Part shown: piece by piece, positions 20,515 through 58,798 of the stretch | Numbering within the stretch: position 1 is the first letter of the stretch | How the letters are laid out: each line of letters starts with the position of its first letter | Assembly: GCA_964503315.1 (NCBI GenBank) | Contig: CAZCZL010000007.1 | Location: 12,327 to 76,326 of the forward strand | Direction of reading: 5' to 3' | Origin: an uncultured Ignavibacteriales bacterium | Lineage (GTDB): Bacteria; Zixibacteria; MSB-5A5; GN15; FEB-12 | DNA: 64,000 nt | Notes under the pieces: model-generated | What the model saw: only the letters and a program-made list of their open reading frames with translations | Database searches by the model: none | What the model was told of the DNA's origin: nothing | Program-made: the position numbers and the translations under genes

Positions 20515-21858
20515 CTATGCGCGCCCTACCCTCGGCATTACGATCGCCGCCGCCCGTGTCGCCAGAGGTCGCAACGCCAGCGCCAACGCCATCAACGCAT
20601 CGCACTCGTTATTGTCATCCCACCGCGCTGAGCGAAGTTCATCCTCCAATGACCACGTTCTCCCCGGGCCATCCGGCAACTCCCAGCGATCATAGGCGAC
20701 GAGACCACGGGCATGCATCAGCTCAACATTGGTGAGCAGTTCAGCTTTGTTCATCGGTGTGAAGATCACTCCCGTCGGTTTGACATCATCAAGCTGTTGA
20801 AGTATCACATCCCCAAGTCCGGTCGCGTCGATAAGCAGTTCACCCGGAAACTCCATCTGTCGTTTCCGTATCTTCTCAAGTATCACCGGCCAGTCGAACA
20901 TCCTGAGCCGTTCCAGTTTCACAATTCGCGCGATACCTTCGTGAACACAGATCGTGATCCCAACTGTCGCTGTTCTCTTCCGCGCCAGATCCCAACCGGA
21001 AATAAAGCGACACCCCGTGAGATCATCTATCGGCGGAAGCATGCGCATCCGCGCGAGCGCGGCATCGATATCCCTCCCCGGGATCACCTCACCGCCGGAA
21101 TCGACAAATTCGCCAAGAATGTTCTGCTTCAGTCGCGTCTCGGAAAAGTACCGCACCCGTTCGTCCAGATACTCCCGCGAGATATGTTCATTATCCCGGC
21201 TGTCGCCGCGCTGGCAATAGCCCGGCCGTTTCCCGTCGACAATCTCATTCGCCCGACGGTACAGCCAGTTTTTGCCGTTCGGTGTCGAAACGAGATCAAG
21301 CGTCCCTTCGCGATCCGCAAGGCGCATCATCAACACCTCTTCCACGACATGTTCCGCGTTCGGGTCAAATGCGACTTCGTCATAGACGACAAAGTCATAA
21401 TCATTTCCGAGCAGATAATCCCCGCGGTTCTGGGTAGTGCGCGCTTCAATCGTCGCGCCATTCGTCAGCGTGATCTGGAGAAACGGCGTATGCAGGACCG
21501 ATTGAACCAGCGGCTTCATCCATGCCGAACGATATATCAGCCGTAAGGCATGCAGCAAAACCAGGTCCGCCTGATTTTGCGTAATAGAGACCACCGCCGC
21601 TCGGTAACGATCGGCGCTGTCGTACTTCCGGTCTCGATATCTATAGACCGCGTGGTGCAGAAGTTTCACCGCCGAGACAAACGACTTCCCCCAGCGATTC
21701 CCCGTCACCAGGATATTCTCCCGCCTGACCGAGTTCGCGAGCCATTGCCGCTGGCCATCGTGCAGTGAGATGCCGAGTATCTTCGTCGCGAACGATGGAA
21801 TATCCAGCACGCCGTCGAGCCAGACATTTTCTACCGGCGGCACTATATCATCCGGCAT
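20515..21858 (-). CDS. phage terminase large subunit (Terminase_6-like)
   Basis: Walker A 'GNRWGKS', Walker B 'FVVYDE', motif III 'STPNG', nuclease 'GWDLA', 'DATGLGD', 'CDALMALALA'. Confidence 0.9.
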   Translation of the reverse strand: MPDDIVPPVENVWLDGVLDIPSFATKILGISLHDGQRQWLANSVRRENILVTGNRWGKSFVSAVKLLHHAVYRYRDRKYDSADRYRAAVVSITQNQADLVLLHALRLIYRSAWMKPLVQSVLHTPFLQITLTNGATIEARTTQNRGDYLLGNDYDFVVYDEVAFDPNAEHVVEEVLMMRLADREGTLDLVSTPNGKNWLYRRANEIVDGKRPGYCQRGDSRDNEHISREYLDERVRYFSETRLKQNILGEFVDSGGEVIPGRDIDAALARMRMLPPIDDLTGCRFISGWDLARKRTATVGITICVHEGIARIVKLERLRMFDWPVILEKIRKRQMEFPGELLIDATGLGDVILQQLDDVKPTGVIFTPMNKAELLTNVELMHARGLVAYDRWELPDGPGRTWSLEDELRSARWDDNNECDALMALALALRPLATRAAAIVMPRVGRA

Positions 21859-23075
21859 GCGCGCTCGCGGGCAACTGATTCATCGATCAGACCGGCCTGG
21901 AACAGCCTGAGCAGATTGTCCACCCGCTTCGACTCTATCCCGATAGAATCCGCCGCCTGATAGGCGAAGGTATTGTCGAATTCAAACCGGCACCTGACAT
22001 CAAATCCACCCAGCGCCAGTTCGATATTTCCGATCCATTCAAGAAAGTCCGCCACCTGTGCCTGCACCGAGCGGACCTGACGCATCACGATATCGAATTT
22101 GAAATCCGACCAGGTCGTAGTGGCGCCGTATGAGTAGCCGAGCAGGAATGGCGCGAGGTTAGTTCCGGCGCAGATATCCTCGATCAGCGCGCGATGATTG
22201 ATAAACCAGCTATTGGTCACTCCGCGCGCGGTCTCCGGCCCGATATAATCGATCGTCACATTATCCCAGGTGACCGGGTTGTCATCCACTTCGCACTCGC
22301 GGATCATCGAGACCGTCGCGTCGAAATACTTATTTATCCGGTCAGTGTACGCGTTGTCCGATTCCCCGGCCATCCGCTCCGGCGGCGTTATCTTGACATG
22401 CAGGCGGCTGTAACCGGCGTTATGTTGCGCGCGCTGAAGATCCCGTATCAACTGCTGTTCGATAAAAGAAATGAACGGCACCGGATGGAGGATCGACCTC
22501 CCGAACGGCTCGGATATCGTATTCGCCAACGCGACATACCGGAAATCCGCGCGATCCAGCGGAAGCGTGATCTCGCCGTTGTCATACACAAGTTGAGGTC
22601 CGCGCGCGGTTTGTTCGCCACGGAGATGTACCGCGTCGACCGGCACAAATTGATCGACTCCGGTTGCATCAGGAAGCATGGTCACAAATCCGCCAAATAT
22701 GCCGTCTCGATAAAGCGAAGTGAAAAGATCGGGAAGCATCGTAGCGACGCCGAGGTGGTGACAGTTTGGCATCCTCATGATTCGTTCGGACAGACGGTTG
22801 AGTCGCGCGAGTGGGGCGCTGATTGATTCTTTCTCCGGGATTTCCTGACCATCGGACGAAAGAATCAAAAATCTCCCCGGCGCGGCGGAGAGGCGTGCCC
22901 AGGTCCAGACACAGGCGGAGATTATCGGTATCTGATCGCACAGGAAGCGGTAGAGCATTGTGCGATAGCGCCCCGAGTGCAAGTCATTGGGGGAGAGGGC
23001 GAGCATCCGGTTCAGTTGTTTGGTGGTGAGGGAAGGATTTTCTTTGACGGTGGTGGCAAGACGGGCTGTGGTCAT
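21843..23075 (-). CDS. phage portal protein
   Basis: ~410 aa; 'PIISACVWTWARL', 'PFGRSIL', 'IEDICAGTNLAPFLLG', 'GLIDE' end; overlaps terL start; AAAGGAG RBS before ATG 23075. Confidence 0.8.
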   Translation of the reverse strand: MTTARLATTVKENPSLTTKQLNRMLALSPNDLHSGRYRTMLYRFLCDQIPIISACVWTWARLSAAPGRFLILSSDGQEIPEKESISAPLARLNRLSERIMRMPNCHHLGVATMLPDLFTSLYRDGIFGGFVTMLPDATGVDQFVPVDAVHLRGEQTARGPQLVYDNGEITLPLDRADFRYVALANTISEPFGRSILHPVPFISFIEQQLIRDLQRAQHNAGYSRLHVKITPPERMAGESDNAYTDRINKYFDATVSMIRECEVDDNPVTWDNVTIDYIGPETARGVTNSWFINHRALIEDICAGTNLAPFLLGYSYGATTTWSDFKFDIVMRQVRSVQAQVADFLEWIGNIELALGGFDVRCRFEFDNTFAYQAADSIGIESKRVDNLLRLFQAGLIDESVARERACRMI

Positions 23076-23269
23076 GGTGCAGACTCCTTTCATATAGGGG
23101 CCGGCACTTGGGAGAACTGACAAATGTAATACAGAGTTGAATAATGGAGATGTACACTAGGAATTGTGTCTGAGCGTTTACTCGCGTGTTTATCCCCATC
23201 TTCTCATCGTTGACTTCTCCGCCCCACTATTCTATATTCCCGTTACAACCCTCAAACGGACACAACACT

Positions 23270-24211
23270 ATGATGAAGAGATTTCTGCTCATCTTAGCTA
23301 TTCTGGGAGCCGCCGCCATGGCCAACGCTCAAGACAATCCATCCCTTCCTGATTTCGATTCCCTCTGGAATTTCGATAAACCGGCCGAAACCGAAACCGC
23401 CTTCCGCGCGCTCATTCCAGCCGCGGTCGCCGCCAATGACACCGGATACCATGCCGAACTGCTGACGCAGATCGCCCGCACACTTGGCCTTCAGCAGAAA
23501 TTCACCGAGGCCGATGCGTTGCTCGATACCGTCAACACCATGCTCCCTGCCGCCGGACCTCGCGCGTATGTGCGCTATCTGTTGGAGCGGGGGAGAGTGC
23601 GCAATTCATCCAAACGCCAGGATGAAGCGCTCCCGCTTTTTGCCGATGCCTGGGAGAAAGCCAAGATCGGCGGATTCGACAATCTTGCCGTCGATGCCGC
23701 GCATATGTGCGCGATCGCCGCGCCTGCCGACCAGAAACTTCCCTGGAATCTAAAAGCGCTCGAGTGGGCGGAGCAGTCATCCGACCCCAAAGCCCGCAAA
23801 TGGCTCGGCTCGCTCTACAACAATATCGGATGGGACTATTTCGACCAGAAGAAATATGATCTCGCGCTGGAGTCGTTCACCAGCGCAGTCGCTATCCGCG
23901 ATTCTCTGAATCAGCCGACACAGTTGCGAATCGCCATCTGGTGTGTCGCGAAAACATACCGCATGTTGGGCGATCTGGAAACCGCGTTGGCAATGCAGCA
24001 GGATCTCGAAGCCGAATGGAAAGCGTCCGGCGAAGAGCAGGATGGCTACGTCTTTGAGGAACTCGCCGAATGTCTGCTCGCGCAGGGCCGCACCGATGAG
24101 GCGACCCCATATTTCGCCAAAGCGTATGAGCTGTTGTCGAAAGATCAATGGCTCGCTCGCGATGAACAACCCCGCCTCCTGCGACTGAAAGAGCTGGGGA
24201 AAGTGCAGTAG
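23270..24211 (+). CDS. secreted tetratricopeptide repeat protein
   Basis: Signal peptide MMKRFLLILAILGAAAMANA; TPRs 'LYNNIGWDYF'. Confidence 0.85.
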   Translation: MMKRFLLILAILGAAAMANAQDNPSLPDFDSLWNFDKPAETETAFRALIPAAVAANDTGYHAELLTQIARTLGLQQKFTEADALLDTVNTMLPAAGPRAYVRYLLERGRVRNSSKRQDEALPLFADAWEKAKIGGFDNLAVDAAHMCAIAAPADQKLPWNLKALEWAEQSSDPKARKWLGSLYNNIGWDYFDQKKYDLALESFTSAVAIRDSLNQPTQLRIAIWCVAKTYRMLGDLETALAMQQDLEAEWKASGEEQDGYVFEELAECLLAQGRTDEATPYFAKAYELLSKDQWLARDEQPRLLRLKELGKVQ

Positions 24212-24272: not shown

Positions 24273-24430
24273 CACCGTACCCCACCATTTATGGTGGGAC
24301 TCTTAAGCAGTGCTCGCTTCTTAACTTTGTGCCCCACTCAACTCGGGCTGAGCGGAGTCGAAGCCCGAATCCCGTTGTTCAGGGCAAACGGGGACGTCTG
24401 CCTCTCAAATATAGACGTCCCCCTATCCGG
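24273..24430. repeat. REP-like palindrome cluster
   Basis: CACCGTACCCCACCATTTATGGTGGG (also at 50532), CGGGCTGAGCGGAGTCGAAGCCCG, GGCAAACGGGGACGTCTGCC. Confidence 0.8.
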
Positions 24431-25153: not shown

Positions 25154-25155
25154 AC

Positions 25156-25926: not shown

Positions 25927-26255
25927 GAACTTCCTCCTGGCCGGACTGCAAGCCGCTTCCTATTTGGGCGACATGACCCGGCATTGGTTTTCCCGCAAAA
26001 AGAGGGAGAGGGGTGGGTCCGACAAGGACATGCCCGTCACAAACCAATTGGGGGATAAGGGGATAGCCGTATCACGTGAGTCACTTTGACTACGCCTGAC
26101 CGTCGAGACTGTCTGTCTGCACGCTTTTTGCGTATACTCGAAGAGGGAGGGGGCGTGGTTTAGTTTTGAGCGGCAGACGTCCTCGTCTGCCCTTCTAGAG
26201 AGATAAGCCCGGGCAGAGCAGGAGCTCTGCCGCGCAACTGACAAAAGAGGATCGC

Positions 26256-27049: not shown

Positions 27050-27495
27050 TCGTAGGGCGGGTCCGTCATCGAACCCGCCTCTAATGACAAAGCGAAAACT
27101 GACCATCTAAGATTATCGCAATCCCTGCAACGCCTCTTCCCAGCGAAAGCTGGGATACAGACTTCACTGTCATCGCGAGCCTTGCCGGGCAGTGAACGAA
27201 CGTCTCAAGACAGTCTTTCGAGGGCAAGGCGTCGCGATCTCACTTATACGTAGAAGAAACTGAGATCACGACGCTTTGCTTTGTCAAACGGATGAAGCAA
27301 AGCTCGTGATGACGTTCGTGGGTCATTGCGAGTGAAGCGAAGCAATCAATTATCGGGAGTGAATCGGATTAATCTATCGCCGGCAGCGCACTTCGACTAC
27401 GCTCAGTGCGATTACTGGTCGGGCAAACGGGGACGTTTGCCGCGCATAAGAATCGGGCTGAGCGGAGCCTGCCCTGAGTTCATGCTCAGGGTCGA
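27050..27495. repeat. dense cluster of REP-like stem-loop elements (BIME-like)
   Basis: Several palindromes incl. CTGTCATCGCGAGCCTTGCC..GGCAAGGCGTCGCGATC, GTCATTGCGAGTGAAGCGAAGCAATC, CTTCGACTACGCTCAG, CGGGCTGAGCGGAG..TCGAAGCCCG. Confidence 0.8.
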
Positions 27496-46513: not shown

Positions 46514-46827
46514 GAGCGGCAGACGTCCCCGTCTGCCCTGAACGTCATTTCTTTCCGTAGAAGAGGCTTCGACCACGCTCAGAATTGTAGGTCGAAACCC
46601 TTGCCCCGAAGGGGTCGCGAAGTGAGGTTTCGACATTCTGGTCTACCAAATCGGGCTGAGCGGAGTCGAAGCCCGACATCTCGTCATAATTCATTCTTGA
46701 CCCAAAGATCGTGTCGGCCGTGAGATCTTTCCCCTCTCCCTCTGGGAGAGGGTGCCCCGAAGGGGCGGGTGAGGGTCATCAACGTAATACCGTCCTGCTA
46801 ATCGGGCTGAGCGGAGTCGAAGCCCGA
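46514..46827. repeat. REP-like palindrome cluster
   Basis: GCGGCAGACGTCCCCGTCTGCC, two CGGGCTGAGCGGAGTCGAAGCCCG, CCCTCTCCCTCTGGGAGAGGG. Confidence 0.8.
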
Positions 46828-47150: not shown

Positions 47151-47152
47151 GG

Positions 47153-47485: not shown

Positions 47486-47806
47486 TTATTTTTCAGATTT
47501 GAACTTTCTCGCTACTGCGGCCGCGCCCAAACCGATCCCCATCAGCACCAGCGTACCTGGTTCGGGAGTCGGCGTTGGATTCGGATTCGGAGTTGGACCA
47601 GGCTTGTGGCCTCGACCGTCCTTATCCGTCTTATCATACTTTTTGCCATGGTTCGGCTTGGGATCTTTCCCTTTGCCTTCACCCGGCTTGGTCGGAACCG
47701 TGATACCGTAGACATCCGCGAACGTGATCGACATGACGATCAGGAACGCGAGCGCCGCGACGATCCACTTTCCGATGCCGTTTTCGTTCCGATGATAGAC
47801 CTTCAT
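47486..47806 (-). CDS. small PEP-CTERM sorting-domain protein
   Basis: C-terminal 'PTPEPGTLVLMGIGLGAAAVARKFK'. Confidence 0.9.
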   Translation of the reverse strand: MKVYHRNENGIGKWIVAALAFLIVMSITFADVYGITVPTKPGEGKGKDPKPNHGKKYDKTDKDGRGHKPGPTPNPNPTPTPEPGTLVLMGIGLGAAAVARKFKSEK

Positions 47807-47975: not shown

Positions 47976-47991
47976 GTGCAATCCCTTGCAC
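47976..47991. promoter_or_regulatory. palindromic operator/enhancer candidate
   Basis: GTGCAA-TCCC-TTGCAC about 100 bp upstream of the sigma54 site. Confidence 0.5.
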
Positions 47992-48067
47992 AAATATAGA
48001 AGCGAACCATTAGCTCTTCTGAATTGGCTCCCTTTAGCAGAAGCAGTCGCTAAACTCAGGAGCTTGC

Positions 48068-49567
48068 ATGAAAAACTCCCGCGGGCGTATCATCGCCCAA
48101 CTTGATCTCAATTCACCCCTCCCCATCGCCGACCTGGTCCCGCTTATCAACCAGCGGATCAACCCACCCACCCCGGTCACGGAGGCTGATATCTATATCC
48201 GCGCCATGTTCATCCTCTCCGACCAGACCAACGCGTATGGCGGACGGTTCCCCTCCGATGAACACCCCCGCCTGGCCGATCTTCTGGTGGACTCACCCGT
48301 TCTGGTCGGACATCGACGTGACCTTCTTCCCATCGGTCGAACATTCCATGCCCTCTGCGTCACGCAGGATGGCCGCAACTGGGTCAAGAGCTATTTCTAT
48401 TGGCTGAAGTCCGCTGAAGGCGCGGAGACTCTGCGCGATAATATCGATGCCGGCATTTACAAAGAATGCTCTATCGGATTTGTCTACGGTCTCCCCGAAT
48501 GCTCCATCTGCGGCAAAGATATTCGAGTCTGCCCCCATGAGCCGATGCAGTCTTATGCCGTCAATGGTGAACCGACCGACTGCCATTTCAACTACCGCCA
48601 GATCGACCGTGTGCTCGAAACTTCCCTCGTCTACCGGGGCGCCATCCCCGACACCTCCATCACCCGCGACCTCGCCATCACCAAGGCATCCGGCGCCGAT
48701 GAACCGCTCCGTATCGACTCGCTGGATGACCTCCCGCCCGCCACTCGCTATCTCATCACGCCCCGGTACGAGGGAATCGATATTCGCTTGAAAAATCTGC
48801 CGCATGGATTCGTCGCCGCCCGTCTCACCGGCGAAGAAATACCATTACCACTCGACAACCTCACCGACTTGGAACTTGGATCCAGAGACCGTCTGGCGCG
48901 TCTGGTCGGCTACCGCGGACGTGAACGCTCCACCTCCGCGCAACTCGAACGCTACCTTTCCGGCGCCCATGCCGCGGTCAATCGCGCGACGCTGTTTCTC
49001 TATCCACTCTCAGAGCAGGAGACCGGCCTCCTGCTAAAACCGATAGAATCTCTGGACTGCCGCTTCATTCGTTCCCGCTTTGTGACGCGCCCGCAGATTC
49101 AGCAGGCGGTCGATGACCTCGCCACCCGCGAGGGAGTAGAGATACATCTGATCGACCAAACTCAGTCGAACGGGCGATTCCTCTATCAGCCACGCGAACA
49201 CAATGCTCAGCAGATCCCGATCCTTCGTCTCGCTCGCATGTCTCACTCCGATGACTGGCTCTTGGATATCAACACCGACCAGCCGAGGCAATTCATCATC
49301 CGCCAATTCGATATCGCGCGCTTCCGACATTCAGCCCGCTTTGTCGCCGACCAGATCCTTCCGCCCATGCGCATCCCCGTTGATCCCAAGATGCAACTCA
49401 GTTGGCGGTCCGCTAAACTGACTCAGCGTGACAACGCGCTTTCTCTCGAGGTAGGGGAGAGGCAGGGGGGAGTCCTACGAATTCAACCGATCCGGATCGA
49501 AGGGAAACCTCGCTACCTGTTCTACCGTGCGGACAGACCCGTCTCACGTTCCAAGGAGAATCTATGA
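48068..49567 (+). CDS. prohead (maturation) protease with C-terminal extension resembling a degenerate ATP-dependent ligase domain
   Basis: 'PVLVGH', 'NIDAGIYKECSIGF', 'CSICG..CPH', 'ETSLVYRGA'; C-half 'PRYEG', 'TREGVEI'; AGGAG RBS. Confidence 0.75.
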   Translation: MKNSRGRIIAQLDLNSPLPIADLVPLINQRINPPTPVTEADIYIRAMFILSDQTNAYGGRFPSDEHPRLADLLVDSPVLVGHRRDLLPIGRTFHALCVTQDGRNWVKSYFYWLKSAEGAETLRDNIDAGIYKECSIGFVYGLPECSICGKDIRVCPHEPMQSYAVNGEPTDCHFNYRQIDRVLETSLVYRGAIPDTSITRDLAITKASGADEPLRIDSLDDLPPATRYLITPRYEGIDIRLKNLPHGFVAARLTGEEIPLPLDNLTDLELGSRDRLARLVGYRGRERSTSAQLERYLSGAHAAVNRATLFLYPLSEQETGLLLKPIESLDCRFIRSRFVTRPQIQQAVDDLATREGVEIHLIDQTQSNGRFLYQPREHNAQQIPILRLARMSHSDDWLLDINTDQPRQFIIRQFDIARFRHSARFVADQILPPMRIPVDPKMQLSWRSAKLTQRDNALSLEVGERQGGVLRIQPIRIEGKPRYLFYRADRPVSRSKENL

Positions 49568-49917
49568 CCAGTCCTCCTCCCACCACGCGCCGCTCCGCCC
49601 GTCACCCGGCCGAGAATGGGCTCCTCCGCTTCAGCGGTCAATTGTTCAATCTGCTCATGATCGCGCTTTCCATCGCCGCCGCGTACTTCATGACGATCCA
49701 GTCAATCAAAGTTGAGCTGGCTGCCAAAGCTGAGTCCGCCTCGGTCGCGGCGCTCGACAAAAAACTGGGGGTTGTCGAGATCCTCCTCAAAGAGGGAGTC
49801 GTCAACAAAGAAGAATTCTACCGCTTCTCAACCTCCATCGACTCCCGCCTCGCCCGTATCGAATACCTCGTCTCTGACCCCACACAGGAGAGAACCCGTG
49901 CCCAACGACAACCGTAA
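49564..49917 (+). CDS. small protein with one TM helix and coiled coil
   Basis: TM 'LFNLLMIALSIAAAYFMTI'; ATGA overlap. Confidence 0.75.
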   Translation: MTSPPPTTRRSARHPAENGLLRFSGQLFNLLMIALSIAAAYFMTIQSIKVELAAKAESASVAALDKKLGVVEILLKEGVVNKEEFYRFSTSIDSRLARIEYLVSDPTQERTRAQRQP

Positions 49918-50323
49918 CAGTTTCGATCCCGATGAGGGAGCGCGCCTGGCCGACCAGCTCTGCTCCCGGGATCTCCCATCTATCGATTTCGACTCACTCG
50001 CCACCTGGCTCCGCGCCGCTGGCGAACATCTCCGGCAACTCACACACGAAAAAGAGAGCCATCATGCCTTTAAGCGGTCTGTGCAACAACTCGAGCATGA
50101 CCTGAATCTCCTCCGTGCTGATTACCGCGCGCGAATTGCCGGTCTGCTCAAAGCGATCGCCATCGCCGACAACTCCCGCGCCCGCCACGATGCCCTGGCT
50201 GAGATCATCAATTCACTCTCCACTATGTCCGCCGAAGAATTGATTGCCTGCTACCGCCGCACCTCCGCCATCTTCCGCGACCACTTCCCCAACACCCTCC
50301 CACCGTTGAAAGTGGGTCAATGA
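49898..50323 (+). CDS. helical protein, putative capsid scaffold
   Basis: AGGAG RBS + GTG 49898; coiled coil 'VQQLEHDLNLLRADYRARI'; position between protease and decoration/capsid genes. Confidence 0.55.
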   Translation: MPNDNRNSFDPDEGARLADQLCSRDLPSIDFDSLATWLRAAGEHLRQLTHEKESHHAFKRSVQQLEHDLNLLRADYRARIAGLLKAIAIADNSRARHDALAEIINSLSTMSAEELIACYRRTSAIFRDHFPNTLPPLKVGQ

Positions 50324-50329
50324 TCGCGT

Positions 50330-50512
50330 GGGCTTCGACTGCGCTCAGCCCGATTACATCTGCGCGGCAGACGTCCTCGTCTGCCTGTGAGACAGCTTGA
50401 TGTCTGTCATCGCGAGGTTTGCCGGCACTACTCGATCATCTCAACCGAACTCTCCGCGGCAAACCGTCGCGATCTCTACTGATCAATTGGGCTGAGCGTA
50501 GTCGAAGCCCAA
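50330..50512. repeat. composite REP mosaic, copy 1
   Basis: A(rc)-B-C-A arrangement; see findings. Confidence 0.9.
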
Positions 50513-50578
50513 ATTCGAACAACCCAATCACCACCGTACCCCACCATTTATGGTGGGCCATCACAAGGAAAATCCCCC

Positions 50579-51001
50579 ATGTCCATCCGCGACCACAATC
50601 TCGAATCCATCGCCCCCGTCTTCGCCTCCTTCAAGATCCACCAGACCGCCACCGTCGATGACCTCAAAGATCTCCACCTCGGCCAGCCCGTTATGCTGAC
50701 CGGTAACTCCGAGATCGGTCCCATCACCAACAGCGGCCAGCTTCTCGGCAAACTTATCGCGCTGACACTCACCGACAACGACAATGGCAAACGTGTCGCC
50801 ACTGTCCAGATCGGCGGTATCTGCCGCCTGGCCGTTTCCGCGACAGTGCCATCCATCGGCAATCGTGTCGTTGGCGGAACCGCCGGCACTGTGAAACAAG
50901 CACCGGTCCTCGCCGCCTATGACCCGGCCGGTGGCAATATCGCTCGCGGCACCGTCATCGACATCAACGGCACCACCGACTGCCTGATCCTGCTAAACTA
51001 G
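50579..51001 (+). CDS. capsid decoration/cement-like protein
   Basis: 140 aa, Gly-rich beta pattern 'GQPVML', 'ATVQIGG', 'G.+V.+'; immediately upstream of MCP. Confidence 0.7.
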   Translation: MSIRDHNLESIAPVFASFKIHQTATVDDLKDLHLGQPVMLTGNSEIGPITNSGQLLGKLIALTLTDNDNGKRVATVQIGGICRLAVSATVPSIGNRVVGGTAGTVKQAPVLAAYDPAGGNIARGTVIDINGTTDCLILLN

Positions 51002-51031
51002 CATTCCCGTCATCGCGAGCTTCGACAATTT

Positions 51032-51179
51032 GCGCGGCAGACGTCCTCGTCTGCCCGAACACAACGCAACACCTGTCATCGCGAGGTTTGCCTGCACTTC
51101 CCGAACATCTCAACCGAAATCTCCGCAGCAAACCGTCGCGATCCCTTGATCAATTGGGCTGAGCGTAGTCGAAGCCCAA
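51032..51179. repeat. composite REP mosaic, copy 2
   Basis: B-C-A arrangement. Confidence 0.9.
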
Positions 51180-51227
51180 TTTCGAACAACCCAAACCCAC
51201 ATCAACCTCCCTTCCCAAGGAACCCCC

Positions 51228-52322
51228 ATGGACTTCAACTCCTTCCTCTCTTCTGCCGCCCTGGCAAATCTCAATCGCGCCACTCATGAACCGACCAGCA
51301 ACCTCGACCTCACCCGCGCCGCGTCGCTCGATATCTCCCGCGACACCTATCTCGAAGCTGAATCCCGCGGCATGACTCTCTCCGAACTGCTCGAAACCGA
51401 TGAATACGATCCCTCTCCGGTCGGTGCGCCCATCGATGCTTTCGAGCGCCAGCTCGCCCTCGCCGGTGTCCGACTTGGCGGCAAACGCCCGACCACCGTC
51501 GAGCAGTTCTATCAGAAAGCTCCCGCGCTGATGCCCGAGTTCATGTTGCGTGAGATCAAGAAGGGACAGCAGATGCGTCCGGAACTGAGCCGCCTCATCG
51601 CTTCCTCCACCGTCATCAACTCCAACCGCTACACGCCGTTCTTCATCGATACGTCGAGCGACAAGAAATTCGCGCTCCGTCCCGTTGGCGAAGGCGCCGA
51701 GATCCCGCAACTGATCGTCACCGAACAGACGCACGCCATCACCGTCGCGGATTTCGGCCTGACCCTCAAAACTTCCTACCGTTCGCTCCGCCACCGCTCG
51801 ACCGCGCAATTCCGCGTTTTGCTCTGGTACATCGGCTTTAAGATGCAAACCGACAAGATCGGGATGATCGTCAATACGCTCATCAATGGCGATGGCAACT
51901 CCAATTCCGCGCGCGTCGTCAATGCCGCCGCCACCGGCACGCTAGCCTACGGCGACTTGGTCAGCCTCTGGTCACAGTTCGCGCCCTTCGAAATGACCAC
52001 CCTTGTCTGCCACATCGACAAACTGAAAACGATTCTCAACCTGAGCGAATTCAAAGATCCGCTCATCGGCTACCGCTTCCAGCAACAAGGCGATCTGATC
52101 TCGCCGCTCGGCTCGACTCTCATCCGCTCCGATGAAGTCCCCACCGATTATATCATCGGACTCGACAACCGCTTCGCCATCGAAGAGGTCATCGCGCAGC
52201 CGCTGATGATCGAATATGACAAGGTGATCGAGCAGCGGTTCGAGGAAGCTGTTATTTCCGAAGCCGTCTCGTACGCCAAGGTCGTCAAAGAAGCCGCCGT
52301 CATCCTCGACACCGTCTTCTAA
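51228..52322 (+). CDS. HK97-fold major capsid protein
   Basis: 364 aa; 'DAFERQL', E-loop 'PVGEGAEIP', 'LINGDGN', 'IIGLD', 'EYDKVI'; AAGGA RBS; context. Confidence 0.85.
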   Translation: MDFNSFLSSAALANLNRATHEPTSNLDLTRAASLDISRDTYLEAESRGMTLSELLETDEYDPSPVGAPIDAFERQLALAGVRLGGKRPTTVEQFYQKAPALMPEFMLREIKKGQQMRPELSRLIASSTVINSNRYTPFFIDTSSDKKFALRPVGEGAEIPQLIVTEQTHAITVADFGLTLKTSYRSLRHRSTAQFRVLLWYIGFKMQTDKIGMIVNTLINGDGNSNSARVVNAAATGTLAYGDLVSLWSQFAPFEMTTLVCHIDKLKTILNLSEFKDPLIGYRFQQQGDLISPLGSTLIRSDEVPTDYIIGLDNRFAIEEVIAQPLMIEYDKVIEQRFEEAVISEAVSYAKVVKEAAVILDTVF

Positions 52323-52336
52323 CACGCGCTTGATGT

Positions 52337-52450
52337 GCGCGGCAGACGTCCTCGTCTGCCCGATACTATAAGTCATACCTGTCATCGCGAGGCTTGCCGG
52401 CACCACACGATCATCTCAACGCGAATCTCACCGGCAAGCCGTCGCGATCC
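52337..52450. repeat. composite REP mosaic, copy 3
   Basis: B-C arrangement. Confidence 0.9.
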
Positions 52451-52475
52451 CAAACTCACAACAGAAGCACCCCCT

Positions 52476-53891
52476 ATGCTCACCAAACTCTCCGACACCG
52501 CCGCCCTCTATCCTCTCGGCCATGCCACCGGCCAACGGCTCCTGCGCCTGCCATTCGGACCCTATGCCGGACGGCTCGTCGCGCTTTATCTCGATGTCGC
52601 CGGTCACCTCGCGATGCGATGGCGCAACTCCGGCGCCTCCACCTGGTCAACTCCCATCACTATCGCCACCGATATCGCCGACCTTTCGTATGACTGCTGC
52701 ATCGCCGACGATTGCTCCATCCATATCGCCTTTCTCGATTCCGATGGCGTCACGCTCAAATCCCGCGCGTTATCTTACGCAGACGGCACATGGACCATCG
52801 GCGATCCGGTCACCGTCTACAACGCGCACTCAACCCTCAACCCCTCACTCGTTATCGACTCCACCGGCACACTCTGGCTCGCGTTCAATCGTCTGGACAA
52901 CGGCAACTGGTTCATTCAACTGAAATCTTCGACCGATTCCGGCGCCACCTGGGGTTCCGGACCGACCGACCCAGGGGAGACGCTCTCAGCCGGCGCGTCA
53001 CAACTCACCGCCAAGCTGATCGCCACCGCCGAAACACTCCACGCTATTATCGCCTACGGCTCCACCAAGATCGTTTCTCGCGCCATGCCGTACTCAACCG
53101 CGATCTGGTCTGATGAATACATCATCGCCTCCGGTCTCTCCGGATTCAGTCATCAAATTGATGCTGCCCTTGGTCCCAATGGCCGGATCGCTGTCGCTTA
53201 CAATGACTCCGCCTTTCGCGTACGTGAATTCGATGGCCTCACCTGGGGCGCCGCGGCCACGCTCGAAGCAACCGTCCAGCAATCGCCGCAAGTCGTCTTC
53301 CGCAACGGCATCCCGACCATCCTCTGGCTGCGCGGATTCAACTATGAGCAACGTCGCCTCATGTTTTCCTCCCGAAGATCCGGCGACTGGTCAACTCCCG
53401 CGCCACTCGACCCGCGTGCCGATCTCTTTGATTCCGTCATCCTCTACAATCACGGCGCGGGAACCTACATCGACAGAACTGCCGCCGCGTCTGACCTGAC
53501 CGAGTCCGATATTTCACACCCCGCCTCCGGCGCGCTCTTCAAAAATCCCGGAGATGCTCTTTATGTAGGCATGAACTCCCGCTTCCGCTATCTGCACGCC
53601 GTACTCTCACCAGTGGGGAGCGGTGGAACCGTCACTTTCAGCTTCTGGAATGGCTTCCTTTGGGTGCCGTTCACACCGAGTAGCGGCCAATCTAACTTCG
53701 ACTCAACCCCCGCGCGCATCGCTCTTTGGCCTGATTATCAGTCTATTCCGCTTGACTGGCAGAAACGGATCGTCACTAATCAGATCCGCTACTGGATCAA
53801 GATCGAAGTCAACTCTGGATTCACCACCGGCCCGATCGGCTCGCAGATTTCGGCTGTCTCTGAGCTGCAAACGTTCATCGTCCGGAGGTAG
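52476..53891 (+). CDS. BNR/Asp-box beta-propeller protein with C-terminal beta-sandwich (putative virion accessory)
   Basis: 'SSTDSGATW' Asp-box; 'WS.P' blade ends; C-terminal 'RYWIKI'. Confidence 0.7.
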   Translation: MLTKLSDTAALYPLGHATGQRLLRLPFGPYAGRLVALYLDVAGHLAMRWRNSGASTWSTPITIATDIADLSYDCCIADDCSIHIAFLDSDGVTLKSRALSYADGTWTIGDPVTVYNAHSTLNPSLVIDSTGTLWLAFNRLDNGNWFIQLKSSTDSGATWGSGPTDPGETLSAGASQLTAKLIATAETLHAIIAYGSTKIVSRAMPYSTAIWSDEYIIASGLSGFSHQIDAALGPNGRIAVAYNDSAFRVREFDGLTWGAAATLEATVQQSPQVVFRNGIPTILWLRGFNYEQRRLMFSSRRSGDWSTPAPLDPRADLFDSVILYNHGAGTYIDRTAAASDLTESDISHPASGALFKNPGDALYVGMNSRFRYLHAVLSPVGSGGTVTFSFWNGFLWVPFTPSSGQSNFDSTPARIALWPDYQSIPLDWQKRIVTNQIRYWIKIEVNSGFTTGPIGSQISAVSELQTFIVRR

Positions 53892-53895
53892 CACT

Positions 53896-54708
53896 ATGTC
53901 ATACGTCACCCTCGACCATCTCCGTCCCTACCTGATCGCCAACGCCCCGACCGCCGAAACCGTCACCGATCAGCCCTTCCGCTTTTCCGGGATCGACTGG
54001 CAACGATTCCATGGCGGCGCAGTCGACCCATTGTCATTGCGGGTAAAATCCCGCCGCGCCAACATCCTCACACGTCTGCAACTCACGCTCACTGATTCTC
54101 CCGTTCAACTCTCCAACTCACCGATTGTCGCCGAGTCGCTCTTGGTCGCCTCCAATTCATCACTCGGCCGTATCTATCAGCCGAATGTCGATTACACGTT
54201 CGACAGCCATAACAACTCACTCGCCATCAAACCCGGCGGAGATCTTTCGTCCGACACCTCGGTTACCGTTTGGTTCGAGCCGTTCACGCTCTACCACGAA
54301 GGCTCCGACTACTCCCTCAATGCCGACAGGGGAGAGCTTCGACGGCTCCCGTCCGGCTCCATCGCGGATTCCGAATCCGTTCTGCTCGACTTCACGCCGC
54401 TGTACGCGCCCTATTCCGATGACCTCCTCAACGCCGCCATCGCCGAAGCCAATGGTCTCATCGAACGCGAGATCGACCCCGACAAACAGTTTGGCGCCGA
54501 TCCGACACTGAATGCCGCCGCACGGTCTCTCGCGCTTGAGATCGTCTGTCGCGCCGCCGCCGCGCGTGAGCTTGCCTCCGGTCGCTCACTCGATAAGATC
54601 GCCCTCGCCTGGGAATCTCTCGCCGTCACTCACGCCGCGCGCGCCGAAAGACTCCTCAAATCCTTCCGCCCGCCTCTGTTGTCACCCAAATCCCCAACCG
54701 TCAGATAG
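53896..54708 (+). CDS. putative head-completion/adaptor protein with inserted Ig-like repeats
   Basis: 'MSYVTLDHL' start and 'LLNAAIAEANGLIE...AARSLALEIV' end typical of gp6/gp15-like adaptors; internal 'Y.....DY.+' repeats. Confidence 0.6.
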   Translation: MSYVTLDHLRPYLIANAPTAETVTDQPFRFSGIDWQRFHGGAVDPLSLRVKSRRANILTRLQLTLTDSPVQLSNSPIVAESLLVASNSSLGRIYQPNVDYTFDSHNNSLAIKPGGDLSSDTSVTVWFEPFTLYHEGSDYSLNADRGELRRLPSGSIADSESVLLDFTPLYAPYSDDLLNAAIAEANGLIEREIDPDKQFGADPTLNAAARSLALEIVCRAAAARELASGRSLDKIALAWESLAVTHAARAERLLKSFRPPLLSPKSPTVR

Positions 54709-54718
54709 GAATCCACCC

Positions 54719-55090
54719 ATGTCCTCGCTTGAACGTGTTACCTCTCACCGATGTTGGATCATCCATGACTTCTCTGTCTGGGGGAGACCAACCCTCGGTG
54801 AACTCGATCTGCTTCTCTATGAATCACCCACCGCCACCGGTGAGATCTTTTTCAGCACTGCCGATATCGGCGACTCCGCGCAAAAAGTCGAATTCTCCCA
54901 ACTGACCGACCATCGCGGCAACCCATTGCCGTCGATCATCTCCGCGCCGCATATCATCATACGCCCGCGCTCTGCGGACTCCGTCTTTCTCATCGGCCAC
55001 GAAACTAACTCCGCATTTTCCATCGCGCACGATGCCGACCTCGATTCCCCCGTTCTCGTCCACCTCTTCATCACCGAAATGGGGGAGTAG
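54719..55090 (+). CDS. hypothetical protein in capsid operon
   Basis: 123 aa; AGGA RBS; tight spacing. Confidence 0.7.
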   Translation: MSSLERVTSHRCWIIHDFSVWGRPTLGELDLLLYESPTATGEIFFSTADIGDSAQKVEFSQLTDHRGNPLPSIISAPHIIIRPRSADSVFLIGHETNSAFSIAHDADLDSPVLVHLFITEMGE

Positions 55091-55091
55091 C

Positions 55092-55355
55092 ATGGCTGGT
55101 ACCTCTTTCAAAGTCGTCAACCCTCTGGTCAACCTCGACAAGCTCGACCTGCTGATTGACATTTATCTCACCGGTTTGATTGACCGCTCCGAGGATGTGA
55201 AACTCTGCGATTTCGTCCGGCTCGTCGATCTCCGCCACCGCATCGACCCGGTCGTGTCTGATAAAGCAGATCCGATGCATCAAGTCAACTCTGCCCGCGA
55301 GCGTCTCCTTCCCATGAACGGCGTCACCGAAAACGAGGGAGACCCAGACCAATGA
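55092..55355 (+). CDS. hypothetical protein in capsid operon
   Basis: 87 aa; GGGGGAG RBS. Confidence 0.7.
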   Translation: MAGTSFKVVNPLVNLDKLDLLIDIYLTGLIDRSEDVKLCDFVRLVDLRHRIDPVVSDKADPMHQVNSARERLLPMNGVTENEGDPDQ

Positions 55356-56512
55356 CCCGCCTCTTGCTTGTTATCATTCTGACTACATCTTCCATATTCG
55401 CGCAGACGACCATTCACCGTGACTCTCGCACATCTGGGAATAGCCTCATCGCCGCGACCTTTACACTGCGAGATTCTCTCCATGCGACTCTGGGCGATTT
55501 GCGGGACCAAACATTCAAACCGACACTTTCTCTCTACGATTCCGCCGGAGGCGCGATAACGATATTGCTCGCCGATTCACTCCGACCCTACTCCCCCAAA
55601 GAGTGCCGCGTCAGTTCCTCCGATGCCCTCTGGTTCCCATCAGACAACTCCACCCGCCACCTGCTCTATCTTCGCGATGACCACTCCCTCGAGTGGGAGA
55701 TCATCCTCGATTCCCCAACGACCATCACCGCCTATCGCTTCCCGGTCAAACTGCAGAACTTGATTGCGTTTTATCAGCCGGAACTGTCCAAAGAAGAACT
55801 CGCCGAAGGCCACTCCCGCCCCGACTCTATCATTGGCTCCTACGCCATCTATAGAAAAACAGGGGAGAAGGTGCTGCACATCCCACGCCCCCGCGCGTTC
55901 GATGCCGATGGTTCTTCCATCTGGTGCGATCTGCGCATCGATTCATTTTTCACCATCACCGTCCCCTCTGATTTCCTCGCCAAGTCCCGCTTTCCGATCC
56001 GCATTGACCCGTCATTTGGCTACAGTAACGCCGGTGCTTCTTCGCTCGCAGTCGCGTCCATCCGATGTTACGCCAATGGCAACGCCAACTACCGCTATAC
56101 CGCGGGCGCCAACCAACGGGTCGACTCCTTCCGTGTTCATCTCCGCACGCTCACCGGCAATAGTGACACTGTCGATGTCGCGCTCTACTCGTGCAACAAC
56201 GGCATCCAGAACCGCCTCGATACCGCCGTCTGGGTCTACACCGCCAGTGCCACTGCGACATGGGTTAGCTCAGGACCGATCGCTCAGATGCTGACAAATG
56301 GCACAACCTACACACTAGCGACAAACCACCACGAAGGAACCCCGCGAATCTCCTACGACGTCGGCTATTCCGGCGACCATAGCTTTGACAGTGTCAACGA
56401 CCTTCCCGTCACCTGGACCGAGGATGGCGTCGGCACCTACCTCATCTCCATGCAAGCCTGGTACTCAACCATCACCACATCATCCACCCCCACCCGCCGC
56501 CGAAGACTCTGA
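55352..56512 (+). CDS. signal-peptide protein resembling phage spike/fibre and Rhs N-terminal domains
   Basis: Signal 'MTRLLLVIILTTSSIFA'; 'LEWEIILDS', 'PRAFDADG', 'FPIRIDPSFG'; ends 'PTRRRRL'. Confidence 0.65.
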   Translation: MTRLLLVIILTTSSIFAQTTIHRDSRTSGNSLIAATFTLRDSLHATLGDLRDQTFKPTLSLYDSAGGAITILLADSLRPYSPKECRVSSSDALWFPSDNSTRHLLYLRDDHSLEWEIILDSPTTITAYRFPVKLQNLIAFYQPELSKEELAEGHSRPDSIIGSYAIYRKTGEKVLHIPRPRAFDADGSSIWCDLRIDSFFTITVPSDFLAKSRFPIRIDPSFGYSNAGASSLAVASIRCYANGNANYRYTAGANQRVDSFRVHLRTLTGNSDTVDVALYSCNNGIQNRLDTAVWVYTASATATWVSSGPIAQMLTNGTTYTLATNHHEGTPRISYDVGYSGDHSFDSVNDLPVTWTEDGVGTYLISMQAWYSTITTSSTPTRRRRL

Positions 56513-56536
56513 CTTCTGAACTCATCTGGAGTGACC

Positions 56537-58003
56537 ATGAAATATCTTCTGACTATTCTCTCGCTGATTCTCATCTTCCCGTGCGCTCACGCCACCCCCA
56601 TCGTCACCAATAACACCGGCGCCGGAAATGCCGAGGACTCACTTACCCTCACCTTTTTTGTCACCGACACAGTTGGCAATTTCGCGCTCGCCGATTCGTT
56701 TTTCGTGATGATCTTTTCTCCCACCGGCGATTCGCTTTTCGCCGCAAGTTACACCGCCGCGTCCACCGAGATCCGCGCCATTACCCTCGGCACGTCGGGG
56801 CGCAAAGGCTACCGATGGACCAAAGAGGTTGCCGATATTGATGGCTCCTCGCCTCGCTCCGGCACCTACTCCGGTATTTTGATCGCCGTTGATACGCTCG
56901 ATGGTCCCAGCTCCGCCCGCCTCGACCAGGGGTTCGCGTTCTCCTTCATCCTCGAGCCAACCCTCGCTGACCGCGCGAAGATCGGCGATACCTGTGCCGA
57001 CAACAAAGCGATCAACCTCGCGCAGATCTCCGGCGACCAGACCGCGGCCGACAATCTCGAAACCATGCTCGATAACACCGGCGGCCAGACTTTGCGTCTC
57101 GGTCGACTCGTCGTCGATGGTTCCTACGAAGGCGCCGGCTCCGTTTTCATCCGCAATACCAATGCCGCGGGCATGGCGATGCAGATCCTCGGCACCGGTA
57201 CCGGAATTGATATCACCGGCTCCAACTCTGCCGGACTCTCCATCGCGGGAGGTCAGCAGGATATCTACCTCCACGGCTCCGGCAAACTGCACGGCGGCAT
57301 TTCGGAATCATTGCTGGTTGATATGAGCAGCTTGAATGCGTCGTTGGATAATGACAGCTCGCTCGTCACCTTTCTCCGCGCGGGCATCGGGGGAGAGGGG
57401 GGAGGTGGTAATTGCGCCGGTACCGGCGCCTATTCCGTCATGCTGACCGTGATCGACACCACCACCGACCAGGTTATTCCCGGCGCGCAAATCACTGTCC
57501 GCAATCTCGACCAGTCCGCGTTGCTCGCGCTTGTTGAAACCGACAACCTCGGTCGCGCCACCGTTCATCTCGATCCCGGCCCCGCCGTTCTCATCCCGAG
57601 TGCCCCCAATTACATTTTCGCCTCAACCGACACCATTGCGGTCGCTGGCTCCATCTCCGCCACTCTCTCCGGCTATCATTTCGACCCGGGCCAGCCTTCC
57701 GCTCCGAACCTCTGCCGCCTTTACGGATTTCTATACGCAGTCAGTGGCCTACCCGAATCCGGGGCCAAGGTCTCCGCGTCCATCCCATCCGGCGTTGTCC
57801 GTCACAACTCACTGGTCATCTCACCATTCACGACTTCCACTACGACAGATGCCAACGGCTACTTCTACCTCGACCTGATTCCGTCTGATCTGTTGAATCC
57901 TTCCGGCACGAAGTACGAGATTACTATCACCCGCGCTGATGGCACCATCTTGCGTCAACGTCTCAAAATCCCCACCACCCCCACTTGGCAACTTGAATGG
58001 TAA
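56537..58003 (+). CDS. signal-peptide protein with two C-terminal carboxypeptidase-regulatory-like Ig domains
   Basis: Signal 'MKYLLTILSLILIFPCAHA'; 'ISGDQTAADNLE'; 'VIPGAQITVRN', 'TTTDANGYFYLDL'. Confidence 0.7.
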   Translation: MKYLLTILSLILIFPCAHATPIVTNNTGAGNAEDSLTLTFFVTDTVGNFALADSFFVMIFSPTGDSLFAASYTAASTEIRAITLGTSGRKGYRWTKEVADIDGSSPRSGTYSGILIAVDTLDGPSSARLDQGFAFSFILEPTLADRAKIGDTCADNKAINLAQISGDQTAADNLETMLDNTGGQTLRLGRLVVDGSYEGAGSVFIRNTNAAGMAMQILGTGTGIDITGSNSAGLSIAGGQQDIYLHGSGKLHGGISESLLVDMSSLNASLDNDSSLVTFLRAGIGGEGGGGNCAGTGAYSVMLTVIDTTTDQVIPGAQITVRNLDQSALLALVETDNLGRATVHLDPGPAVLIPSAPNYIFASTDTIAVAGSISATLSGYHFDPGQPSAPNLCRLYGFLYAVSGLPESGAKVSASIPSGVVRHNSLVISPFTTSTTTDANGYFYLDLIPSDLLNPSGTKYEITITRADGTILRQRLKIPTTPTWQLEW

Positions 58004-58079
58004 GTGATGGAATATTGATCTCTCTGAGCGTCACTCGTCTCGCCTACTTAACTGAGGCTTTCGGACAACTGCCACCGCA

Positions 58080-58325
58080 TCATTCCGCGCAGGCGGGAAT
58101 CCAGCTTCTTCCTGTCTGCTCTCTGACTCTGATGTGCGAGGTAGGCATCCCCGTCTGCCCCAAGTTGCACGACGTACTTGAGCGGCAGACGTCCCCGTCT
58201 GTCCGAATCCAAATAACCCTGTCATCGCGAGGTTTGCCTGTACTGCCCAAACATCTCAAATTGACTCTTTCTGGCAAACCGTCGCGATCCCTTGACCAAT
58301 TGGGCTGAGCGTAGTCGAAGCCCAA
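58080..58325. repeat. composite REP mosaic, copy 4, preceded by a CATTCCGCGCAGGCGGGAATCC palindrome
   Basis: B 58180, C 58219, A 58300. Confidence 0.9.
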
Positions 58326-58495
58326 ATACGAACAAGTTACGGCAGGTCCACCGTCTCCGCGAGGGTAAGCCTAGCGCTCGCCCAACTTCACAAATCCATT
58401 CTTGCATCTCAATTGCGCGAACGCGAGACCTGATGGCCTATCCTCGATTCTTAAGCAACCCATTCCCTTCCAACTTTCAACCAACAGGAAATACC

Positions 58496-58798
58496 ATGCA
58501 ACCCACCTTCATCTCCGCCGATTCCTTCCTCAGCATCCTCGGCTCTCTCGGCCTGATGTTCGCCACCTTCCTCGCGAAGAAATACATCATCCCCTTCCTG
58601 CAGGTCGGCAAGCGACAGAAATACGCCGAATACATCGCCACTATCGCCGATGACCTCATCGACAACCTCCGCCTGAAATATCCTGACAAAACCTGGCTGG
58701 AACATCTCGATGAAGTCGTCGACACCCTCGTCGCCATCTGCGGCATTACTCCCGAGATCGCGAAACGCGCCCTCCGGGCCTCCGCCGCCCGCAAATAA
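58496..58798 (+). CDS. holin-like small membrane protein
   Basis: 100 aa; one N-terminal TM helix, amphipathic helices, basic C-terminus 'KRALRASAARK'; last gene of operon. Confidence 0.55.
   Translation: MQPTFISADSFLSILGSLGLMFATFLAKKYIIPFLQVGKRQKYAEYIATIADDLIDNLRLKYPDKTWLEHLDEVVDTLVAICGITPEIAKRALRASAARK

Follow-up and report, generated by a model that had tools for sequence, protein, structure and literature searches.

The question raised by a 64-kb stretch of Zixibacteria DNA (contig CAZCZL010000007.1, assembly GCA_964503315.1; hereafter the window, which contains no N runs) is whether the phage-type head and DNA-packaging genes located on it belong to a virus or to the bacterium that carries them. 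The window is bacterial chromosome throughout. Genes for a portal protein and a large terminase (TerL) occupy positions 20515–23123 on the minus strand, and an operon encoding a head maturation protease, a decoration-type protein and a major capsid protein (MCP) extends from 48068 to 58798 on the plus strand. A preliminary description, made from the sequence alone, had placed these phage-like loci about 25 kb apart with host metabolic genes between them, and Pfam and PHROG searches bear out both the coordinates and the gene content. It had also proposed a domesticated particle resembling gene transfer agents (GTAs). The core of this proposal is strongly supported by synteny, selection and host tracking, while the terms 'split', 'tail-less', 'adaptor' and 'holin' need to be changed. 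None of the refuting conditions stated with the proposal and checked here was borne out. The reading that we consider moderately probable is that of a phage-derived head and DNA-packaging module, domesticated long ago and belonging to the Zixibacteria chromosome, a candidate independent GTA-like 'viriform'.

Phage-type head and packaging genes

The portal protein is encoded by a 426-aa open reading frame (ORF) at 21843–23123 on the minus strand, which matches phrog_3753 (E = 1e-15) and, in tblastn, phage portals; its 56 complete orthologues have a median length of 423 aa. The stop codon of this gene overlaps the start of the TerL gene by 16 nt. TerL (20515–21858, minus strand), a packaging ATPase and nuclease, matches PF03237 (E = 1e-10) and phrog_2 (E = 1e-30), and its profile matches the PDB ATPase and nuclease domains of terminases from the Thermus phages P74-26 and G20c. 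The invariance of the Walker A motif GNRWGKS, the Walker B residues DE and the nuclease residues D290, D344 and D420 in 21 diverse orthologues makes the motor look catalytically competent.

The plus-strand operon begins with p499 (48068–49567), comprising an N-terminal head maturation protease (approximately residues 27–206) and a C-terminal part of about 290 aa, a candidate scaffold. p499 matches phrog_16951, and its N-terminal part matches the head protease of Enterococcus phage fHoEfm07 in tblastn (E = 1e-8) and hhalign (97.7%, E = 1.5e-12); H82 and the serine S135 of a 'SIGF' motif are invariant, and both align with the fHoEfm07 protease. Pfam scans of all p499 orthologues gave no match, and the protease assignment rests on tblastn and hhalign to the annotated phage enzyme. 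The next gene, p117 (49564–49917, plus strand), codes for a small conserved protein whose alignment shows one hydrophobic helix followed by a coiled coil; the hydrophobic segment is kept in 57 orthologues, and phrog_462 is matched only weakly. It is followed by p203 (49898–50323, plus strand), a helical protein of about 141 aa read from a GTG at 49898 (orthologue median 145 aa), for which Pfam- and PHROG-type searches gave no family match and which is a candidate scaffold or small terminase. The product of p140 (50579–51001, plus strand), a decoration-type protein, matches the virion structural family phrog_4588, and its 85 complete orthologues are 60–80% identical. MCP (51228–52322, plus strand) was assigned to phrog_3922 (E = 2e-62). 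PDB sequence profile searches with p499, MCP and the downstream proteins p518, p361 and p192 gave nothing significant. The earlier reading of a head and packaging set in open frames therefore stands, since portal, TerL, protease, p140 and MCP all match phage families. Because several long ORFs extend upstream into hairpin elements resembling repetitive extragenic palindromes (REP-like elements), the starts were moved to 52476 for p518, 53896 for p361, 54719 for p192, the GTG at 49898 for p203 and 58496 for p168, and the resulting lengths agree with the gene calls of a 92%-identical relative.

The gene order of siphovirus fHoEfm07 is portal, further genes, protease, a small protein and a phrog_3922 MCP, and then adaptor, tape measure and distal tail protein (Dit). 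Closer in its head module is an IMG/VR contig whose MCP is 36% identical and in which Dit-like and tail-sheath genes follow the module. The best GenBank phage MCP is 33% identical and the best IMG/VR relative outside the clade 38%. The head module of fHoEfm07 and of UViG_3300005915_000248 shares with that of Zixibacteria a homologous portal, protease or protease fusion, small protein before the MCP and phrog_3922 MCP (20–38% identity), in the same order. The phages, however, go on with an adaptor, a tail tube or sheath, a tape measure and Dit, whereas in Zixibacteria p518, p361 and p192 follow the MCP gene. The matches to phage families and the gene order shared with a siphovirus indicate that the head and packaging genes derive from a tailed phage.

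Distribution, synteny and selection in Zixibacteria

A TerL profile search revealed relatives in 257 species-level genomes, the best 80 being 55–93% identical. MCP relatives were found in at least 83 genomes, counted as one genome per species; nearly all of these are Zixibacteria, RBG-1 included, and MCP identity across the phylum is 55–99%. A metagenome protein database yielded 703 MCP clusters (90% identity) at E ≤ 1e-10, and the top 120 proteins, of 363–374 aa and at least 68% identical, are mostly annotated as 'hypothetical'. Presence among relatives is thus broad and syntenic rather than patchy. Many metagenome-assembled genomes (MAGs) titled 'uncultured Ignavibacteriales' (loci L002, L003, L018, L028 and others) carry the Zixibacteria-type cluster with Zixibacteria-like flanks, and their clusters interleave in identity with those of labeled Zixibacteria. 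Single bins titled Thermoplasmata, Flavobacteriaceae, Calditrichota and Deferrimicrobium also carry the cluster. These titles probably represent taxonomy-label or binning errors.

Mapping of the window proteins on about 50 long loci revealed a shared order of about 13 genes in a cluster of about 13 kb: portal-TerL-protease (p499)-p117-p203-p140-MCP-p518-p361-p192-(p386)-p490-p168. The stretch from p192 to p490 is variable and often includes p386. In these loci the cluster genes are on the plus strand except o106, which lies on the minus strand between TerL and p499. This gene (47486–47806 in the window, minus strand) encodes a small PEP-CTERM protein (PF07589, E = 5e-6) and occupies the same place between the TerL and protease genes of contiguous clusters in at least 21 loci. 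Genes for a PD-(D/E)XK nuclease, a tetratricopeptide repeat (TPR) lipoprotein and a PEP-CTERM protein are conserved upstream of the cluster. The conserved right flank (59022–62187 in the window, assigned by Pfam) consists of p720, coding for a dockerin/Ig protein on the minus strand, and the lipoyl synthase gene lipA on the plus strand; of the loci, 40 contain p720 and 27 contain lipA, in identical order and orientation in every locus showing them.

The protease gene lies 0.3–5.8 kb downstream of 72 of 91 distinct TerL genes (within 1 kb for 60 of them); six TerL genes have no protease gene within at least 4.5 kb, 13 could not be judged, and the window is a further split case. The contiguity of the cluster in 72 of 78 resolvable genomes, together with the shared order, indicates that the ancestral state was one contiguous cluster of about 13 kb and that the 25-kb separation in the window, with its inversion, is derived. 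The 'split' of the preliminary description is therefore real in the window and reproduced in independent MAGs, but it is neither the commonest nor the ancestral state. On the TerL side, the context (sigma factor, CYTH protein, TPR protein, portal, TerL and, further on, a gyrB-like gene) repeats in the independent MAG L083 (CAYNIJ010000012), whose TerL is 90% identical. The MCP-side context (accC, biotin carboxyl carrier protein, mutase, epimerase, BlaI, o106, p499 and the following genes) repeats in JAYRFH010000051 and GCA_016708025. Independent assemblies thus share the arrangement of the window. In other lineages, splits or large insertions of host-type genes, for a TonB-receptor-like protein, a GT39-like membrane protein and lipoproteins, occur at the same junction between TerL and p499. 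These repeated splits suggest two transcription units acting in trans.

An apparent break inside MCP, with its parts 590 kb apart in CP070674, was rejected as an artefact, this 'chromosome' consisting of contigs joined by 100 Ns. The 100-N joins of CP070674.1 lie at L216 13012–13110 and L079 9901–9999, and distances on the CP0707xx Zixibacteria records are untrustworthy.

Several features point to long ownership by the host. No integrase was found between the conserved flanks of the approximately 50 long loci, and neither the scanned window ORFs nor these loci contain integration, replication or long-tail genes or an attachment-site (att) context. Of 179 loci, only 3 have a tRNA gene in the vicinity of the cluster. 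Host markers for the test of co-divergence were the cluster-linked LipA and the tracking of GC content; a search for gyrB-like genes matched all bacterial phyla and was dropped. Cluster GC follows flank GC over the range 35–59% (r = 0.98, slope 1.01, n = 35). MCP distances among 19 genomes track LipA distances (Spearman 0.65, Mantel p = 5e-4), and MCP divergence, 0.35, is lower than the 0.55 of LipA.

ORF lengths are uniform over 50–90 orthologues per gene. Ratios of nonsynonymous to synonymous substitution rates (dN/dS), estimated from pairs with unsaturated synonymous sites, range overall from 0.013 to 0.2, with 0.013–0.014 for MCP, 0.05–0.10 for p140 and p117, 0.07–0.10 for portal and TerL, 0.09 for p168 and 0.06–0.2 for p499, p518, p361, p192 and p490, and are equally low in the split clade to which the window belongs. 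Selection is thus strongly purifying and the frames are intact. The fixed chromosomal place and the strong selection argue for a host-owned particle system rather than a prophage.

Accompanying proteins and chromosomal context

Three conserved proteins without head functions follow MCP. The first, p518 (52476–53891, plus strand; 471 aa), is modeled by AlphaFold2 as a sialidase- or lectin-like beta-propeller with a C-terminal beta-sandwich (pLDDT 93, pTM 0.88) and lacks a signal peptide. Foldseek matched it to sialidases, to PLL lectins of Photorhabdus and to chain 9efk_M of the portal-tail complex of phage LME-1, the latter no better than to sialidases and lectins. Synteny of the gene extends to about 80 loci; its sequence is divided between two overlapping frames in RBG-1 (L070) and L076, reflecting a frameshift or an assembly error.

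The second protein, p361 (53896–54708, plus strand; 270 aa), combines an Ig-like beta-sandwich with a three-helix bundle (AlphaFold2, pLDDT 85). Its fold weakly matches phage tail, fiber and baseplate proteins, and its orthologues weakly match the Ig-like domain of phrog_807, a family annotated as 'major tail protein with Ig-like domain'. The fold search gave only fragment matches to the N terminus of T7 gp17, and the best match to the RcGTA neck (6toa_C) had a probability of 0.14. The family is rare: 1.84 billion representative proteins yielded 260 clusters (50% identity). Outside Zixibacteria, its members are neighbors of TerL, portal or MCP or, in a phage-like contig, are fused to Ig repeats next to a BNR propeller. 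The phage-like locus L343 (JGI 3300038512 Ga0400909_00464, 260–6783) encodes three paralogous proteins of about 332 aa and then an 830-aa protein with a p361-like N terminus followed by Ig repeats; the next gene codes for a BNR beta-propeller, which echoes the pairing of p361 and p518. Another contig, L265 (IMGVR_UViG_3300009431_001290, 1–8420), contains only head and packaging genes within 8.4 kb, in the order MCP, 121-aa protein, p361 homologue, TerL, portal, protease and two small genes. Several of these genes have runs of an 8-nt tandem repeat (AACTTGTA-like) directly upstream, and no terminal repeat was seen in the contig. L265 may represent a small head-only element outside Zixibacteria.

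The third protein, p192 (54719–55090, plus strand; 123 aa), neighbors p361 in every case and carries the invariant motif LTDHRGNxLP (alignment A7); it has no relatives in PDB or PHROGs. In the deep-branching Zixibacteria L068, L069, L072, L073 and L076 the order is reversed to p518-p192-p361.

The label 'adaptor' proposed earlier is unsupported. Neither p361 nor p192 showed homology to the adaptor and neighboring gene of the related siphovirus. At the sequence level, p518 and p361 did not match adaptor or nozzle proteins of the podovirus type (T7 gp11/gp12, P22 gp4/gp10), and pattern scans of IMG/VR and tblastn against GenBank phages returned no matches for either. Pfam and PHROG scans of the larger window ORFs revealed no tube, tape-measure, sheath, lysin or integrase families, in agreement with the earlier statement that none is recognizable in the window, and no holin family either. 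The system can nevertheless not be called 'tail-less', because the three conserved proteins that accompany the head genes have folds seen in phage tail and fiber proteins and could form a short appendage; what stands is that long-tail genes were not found.

The remaining cluster genes code for secreted or membrane-anchored proteins. p386 (55352–56512, plus strand), in the variable stretch, occurs in a subset of genomes, and all its orthologues have signal-peptide-like N termini, indicating secretion. p490 (56531–58003, plus strand) is a secreted protein that has a CarboxypepD_reg domain (PF13620) and is conserved over about 190 aa at its C terminus; all orthologues carry a signal peptide and share a conserved mature N terminus, VNNS..EDSL, and the gene is syntenic in about 60 loci. 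p168 (58496–58798, plus strand) is, by its consensus, a 100-aa protein whose single transmembrane helix is N-terminal and whose helical domain is highly conserved, and the gene call in a relative is also 100 aa. The previous interpretation of 58292–58798 as a holin gene was abandoned: the long ORF begins in REP-like elements, the true product has a single transmembrane helix and a conserved soluble domain, and no holin family was matched.

A promoter- or operator-like motif, GCAa-N4-TTGC[G/A]CAAAA, was identified upstream of the protease gene by locus comparison (47976–47997, plus strand). Of 89 non-identical loci, 48 have the motif (GCAa-N4-TTGCGCAAAA) 30–60 nt before p499, among them the window with its copy at 47986, whereas it precedes portal in only 4 of 80. 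It contains the palindrome TTGCGCAA. It resembles a sigma-54 promoter, but this reading was rejected: of the 'GG' at -24 a single G is conserved, and GG-N10-GC would require one more base of spacing.

REP-like hairpins occur in five intergenic gaps of the cluster. A mosaic of families D1, D2, D3 and D6 with inverted repeats I2–I7 lies between p203 and p140 (50329–50520), and further copies are at 51028–51190, 52333–52495, 58132–58335 and 58815–58845. Identical units are found in host intergenic DNA at 24273–24411, 26164–26237, 27167–27463, 41041 and 46510–46827. The REP mosaics reported earlier between the capsid genes thus belong to the same families as those of the host intergenic DNA, which fits long residence in the host. 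Each locus had also been credited with its own terminator; terminator-like hairpins do exist, but their number is not above shuffle expectation. About 590 nt downstream of TerL (19923–20514) contain no convincing ORF and no Rfam match; at the end of this stretch, a T-rich run comes after a strong 14-bp hairpin (20022–20053, minus strand).

The left part of the window contains a gyrB-like gene, fmt and the RNase G gene. The middle encodes AccC, biotin carboxyl carrier protein, methylmalonyl-CoA mutase, a glyoxalase-fold epimerase, an HDOD protein, a CAAX protease and proteins tagged for type IX secretion or with dockerin, and the right part contains lipA and a response regulator gene. Neither tRNA genes nor Rfam families were found in the window. 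An exact 39-nt duplicate, GAGATCACCGACCAGTACAAGGAGCAAAAGGGCGCCTGA, at 10256–10294 and 12891–12929 forms the last 12 codons and stop of the RNase G gene and of the successive 800-aa ORF (10489–12891). A glycine-rich ORF with GGC repeats and internal direct repeats (13176–14582) matches neither Pfam nor PHROGs. A 413-aa RNase_H_2 (PF13482) exonuclease-like protein (35492–36733, minus strand) has, by tblastn, no homology to the 413-aa PD-(D/E)XK nuclease that is the conserved left neighbor of the cluster in other Zixibacteria.

Possible function and alternative explanations

A working scheme may be drawn from these genes. The operon from p499 to p168 would be driven from the conserved upstream motif, and its products would form an HK97-type procapsid, processed by the protease and decorated with p140, on a portal ring. 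Portal and TerL would be supplied by a separate unit able to work in trans, and TerL would cut DNA and pump it into the head. p361, p192 and the beta-propeller p518 could close or decorate the portal vertex and bind glycan on target cells, while the membrane proteins p117 and p168 and the secreted p386 and p490 may act in release or at the cell surface. DNA-filled particles of this kind would serve a host function, most likely the transfer of host DNA from cell to cell. A more specific version, in which a Zixibacteria-wide DNA-packaging capsid machine without a phage tail uses p518, p361 and p192 as its vertex set and the membrane and secreted proteins as partners, and constitutes a new organelle for DNA export or transfer, is put forward tentatively.

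GTAs are defined by particles that package essentially random host DNA, in amounts too small for their own gene set, and deliver it to recipient cells; for the Zixibacteria system, what is shown is the intact TerL motor, and p518 is a candidate receptor-binding part. Judged from its genes, the system would be GTA-like by an independent route; it is not a member of the RcGTA family. Like RcGTA of the Alphaproteobacteria (Rhodogtaviriformidae), it consists of chromosomal phage-derived structural genes without integration and replication functions, inherited vertically under purifying selection over a large clade, and in RcGTA, too, components can be placed in more than one locus and act in trans. 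It differs in its independent origin, in an MCP of the phrog_3922 type whose nearest relatives are heads of environmental sipho- and myoviruses, and in the position of portal before TerL; in the cluster, searches revealed neither a small terminase nor a tail tube, tape measure or hub. The partners of the head genes are p518, p361, p192 and the membrane and secreted proteins, and the Zixibacteria system is known from its genes alone. BaGTA of Bartonella, VSH-1 of Brachyspira, Dd1 of Desulfovibrio, VTA of Methanococcus and PBSX of Bacillus are independent domestications of the morphogenesis genes of tailed phages. They package host DNA in tailed particles, carry their tail and lysis modules within the cluster or close to it, and are confined to a genus or family. 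The Zixibacteria element, in contrast, spans a phylum and has no recognizable tail or lysis genes.

Several points weigh against an interpretation as a GTA-like viriform. LipA is physically linked to the cluster, and the co-divergence test is therefore not independent of linkage. Six single in-frame stops occur among several hundred gene copies: in TerL of L048 (nt 5192) and L029 (nt 5367), portal of L090 (nt 9310), MCP of L033 (nt 11039), p361 of L052 (nt 12876) and p499 of L055 (nt 8411), L048 and L052 being sister genomes. These could be sequencing errors or occasional inactivation. Prevalence in Zixibacteria is a lower-bound count and not a fraction. No small terminase was identified, the candidates p117 and p203 having no supporting match, and no lysis gene or clear device for attachment or ejection was recognized. 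The scans covered the window and the compared loci, and other parts of the genome could contain tail or lysis genes. Being secreted, p386 and p490 cannot join a cytoplasmic capsid, and their tie to the system may be one of synteny only. The particles, their DNA content and its delivery are predictions from the genes.

The alternative that survives best, although it appears rather unlikely, is a capsid-based host function other than gene transfer, such as export or release of extracellular DNA for a biofilm matrix, DNA disposal or storage, or a decoy or abortive infection function. The envelope proteins p117, p168, p386, p490 and the PEP-CTERM protein o106 would then be functional partners. Two membrane-anchored and two secreted proteins are indeed conserved in the cluster, PEP-CTERM and dockerin genes flank it, and lysis or ejection machinery was not recognized. 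The extreme conservation of MCP (dN/dS of about 0.014), which is unusual even among known GTAs, is also in line with such a function. However, the intact nuclease and ATPase of TerL and the portal point to DNA packaging in closed heads, no linked cargo-type or enzyme genes were found, and the envelope genes may be mere neighbors, the stretch from p192 to p490 being variable. Encapsulins are similar in being host-inherited genes for a capsid-type shell that serves the cell itself, but they hold protein cargo and have no portal, terminase or maturation protease, whereas Zixibacteria keep a packaging motor that is catalytically intact by its residues.

It is improbable that the heads need the tails of an infecting helper phage, as those of capsid-forming phage-inducible chromosomal islands (cf-PICIs) do, and are kept for phage interference and/or for the spread of host DNA on borrowed tails. 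A heads-only set of TerL, portal, protease and MCP without tail genes is common to cf-PICIs and the Zixibacteria cluster, in which tube, tape-measure and sheath genes were not found; moreover, the closest true phages with a related head module have long or contractile tails, the helical C-terminal domain of p361 could be a connector, and small head-only contigs have relatives of p361 next to TerL, portal and MCP. Yet cf-PICIs are mobile and patchy and have their own integrase, regulators, replication genes, small terminase and connectors. In the Zixibacteria cluster no integrase, regulatory, replication or small terminase genes were found, and its locus is fixed, ameliorated and vertically inherited across the phylum. 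The lack of homology between p361 and p192 and the siphovirus adaptor and its neighbor also speaks against borrowed tails, and the conserved propeller p518 suggests that the system has a receptor-binding part of its own.

An ordinary or decaying prophage at a conserved insertion site beside lipA is very improbable. All core genes are phage-like, one copy (L261) is called viral in IMG/VR, and a few copies carry nonsense codons; on the other hand, there is neither an integrase nor a tRNA context of the att type, all genomes show an ameliorated GC content, the evolution of MCP is slower than that of LipA, purifying selection and intact frames extend over at least 80 species and the split loci are still conserved, and host genes and REP-like elements are inserted within the cluster. 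An assembly artefact, either a chimeric phage/host contig or one cluster parted in two, has next to no probability: MAG data are error-prone and CP070674 does contain a false split inside MCP at 100-N joins, but the window has no Ns, its TerL side is repeated in CAYNIJ010000012 and its MCP side in JAYRFH010000051 and GCA_016708025. The prophage-remnant and artefact readings are thus essentially excluded.

Full-text literature searches found no papers linking Zixibacteria with capsids, GTAs or this cluster. We know of no cultured Zixibacteria and of no GTA-like lineage described before in the Fibrobacteres-Chlorobi-Bacteroidetes (FCB) superphylum. The known GTAs are few and tailed, and belong mostly to Alphaproteobacteria and a handful of genera.

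For viromics, the domesticated head module carries a warning: such host genes can be scored as prophage or viral signal, as with the single Zixibacteria-type contig in IMG/VR (L261), and some copies are annotated as 'phage major capsid protein'. The conserved proteins p518, p361 and p192 are targets for structural work, and the lineages that parted motor from shell genes while keeping the constraint represent a natural experiment. If the interpretation as a host-owned GTA-like viriform is true, a phylum-wide head-packaging system in an uncultured phylum of sediments and groundwater would be a new, independent domestication of a virus, with a capsid protein under tighter constraint than the housekeeping enzyme LipA. 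It would be the first GTA-like lineage of the FCB superphylum known to us, and would provide these bacteria with a possible route of gene exchange in anoxic sediments and, in the more specific version without a phage tail, with a new type of cell-owned organelle for DNA export or transfer.

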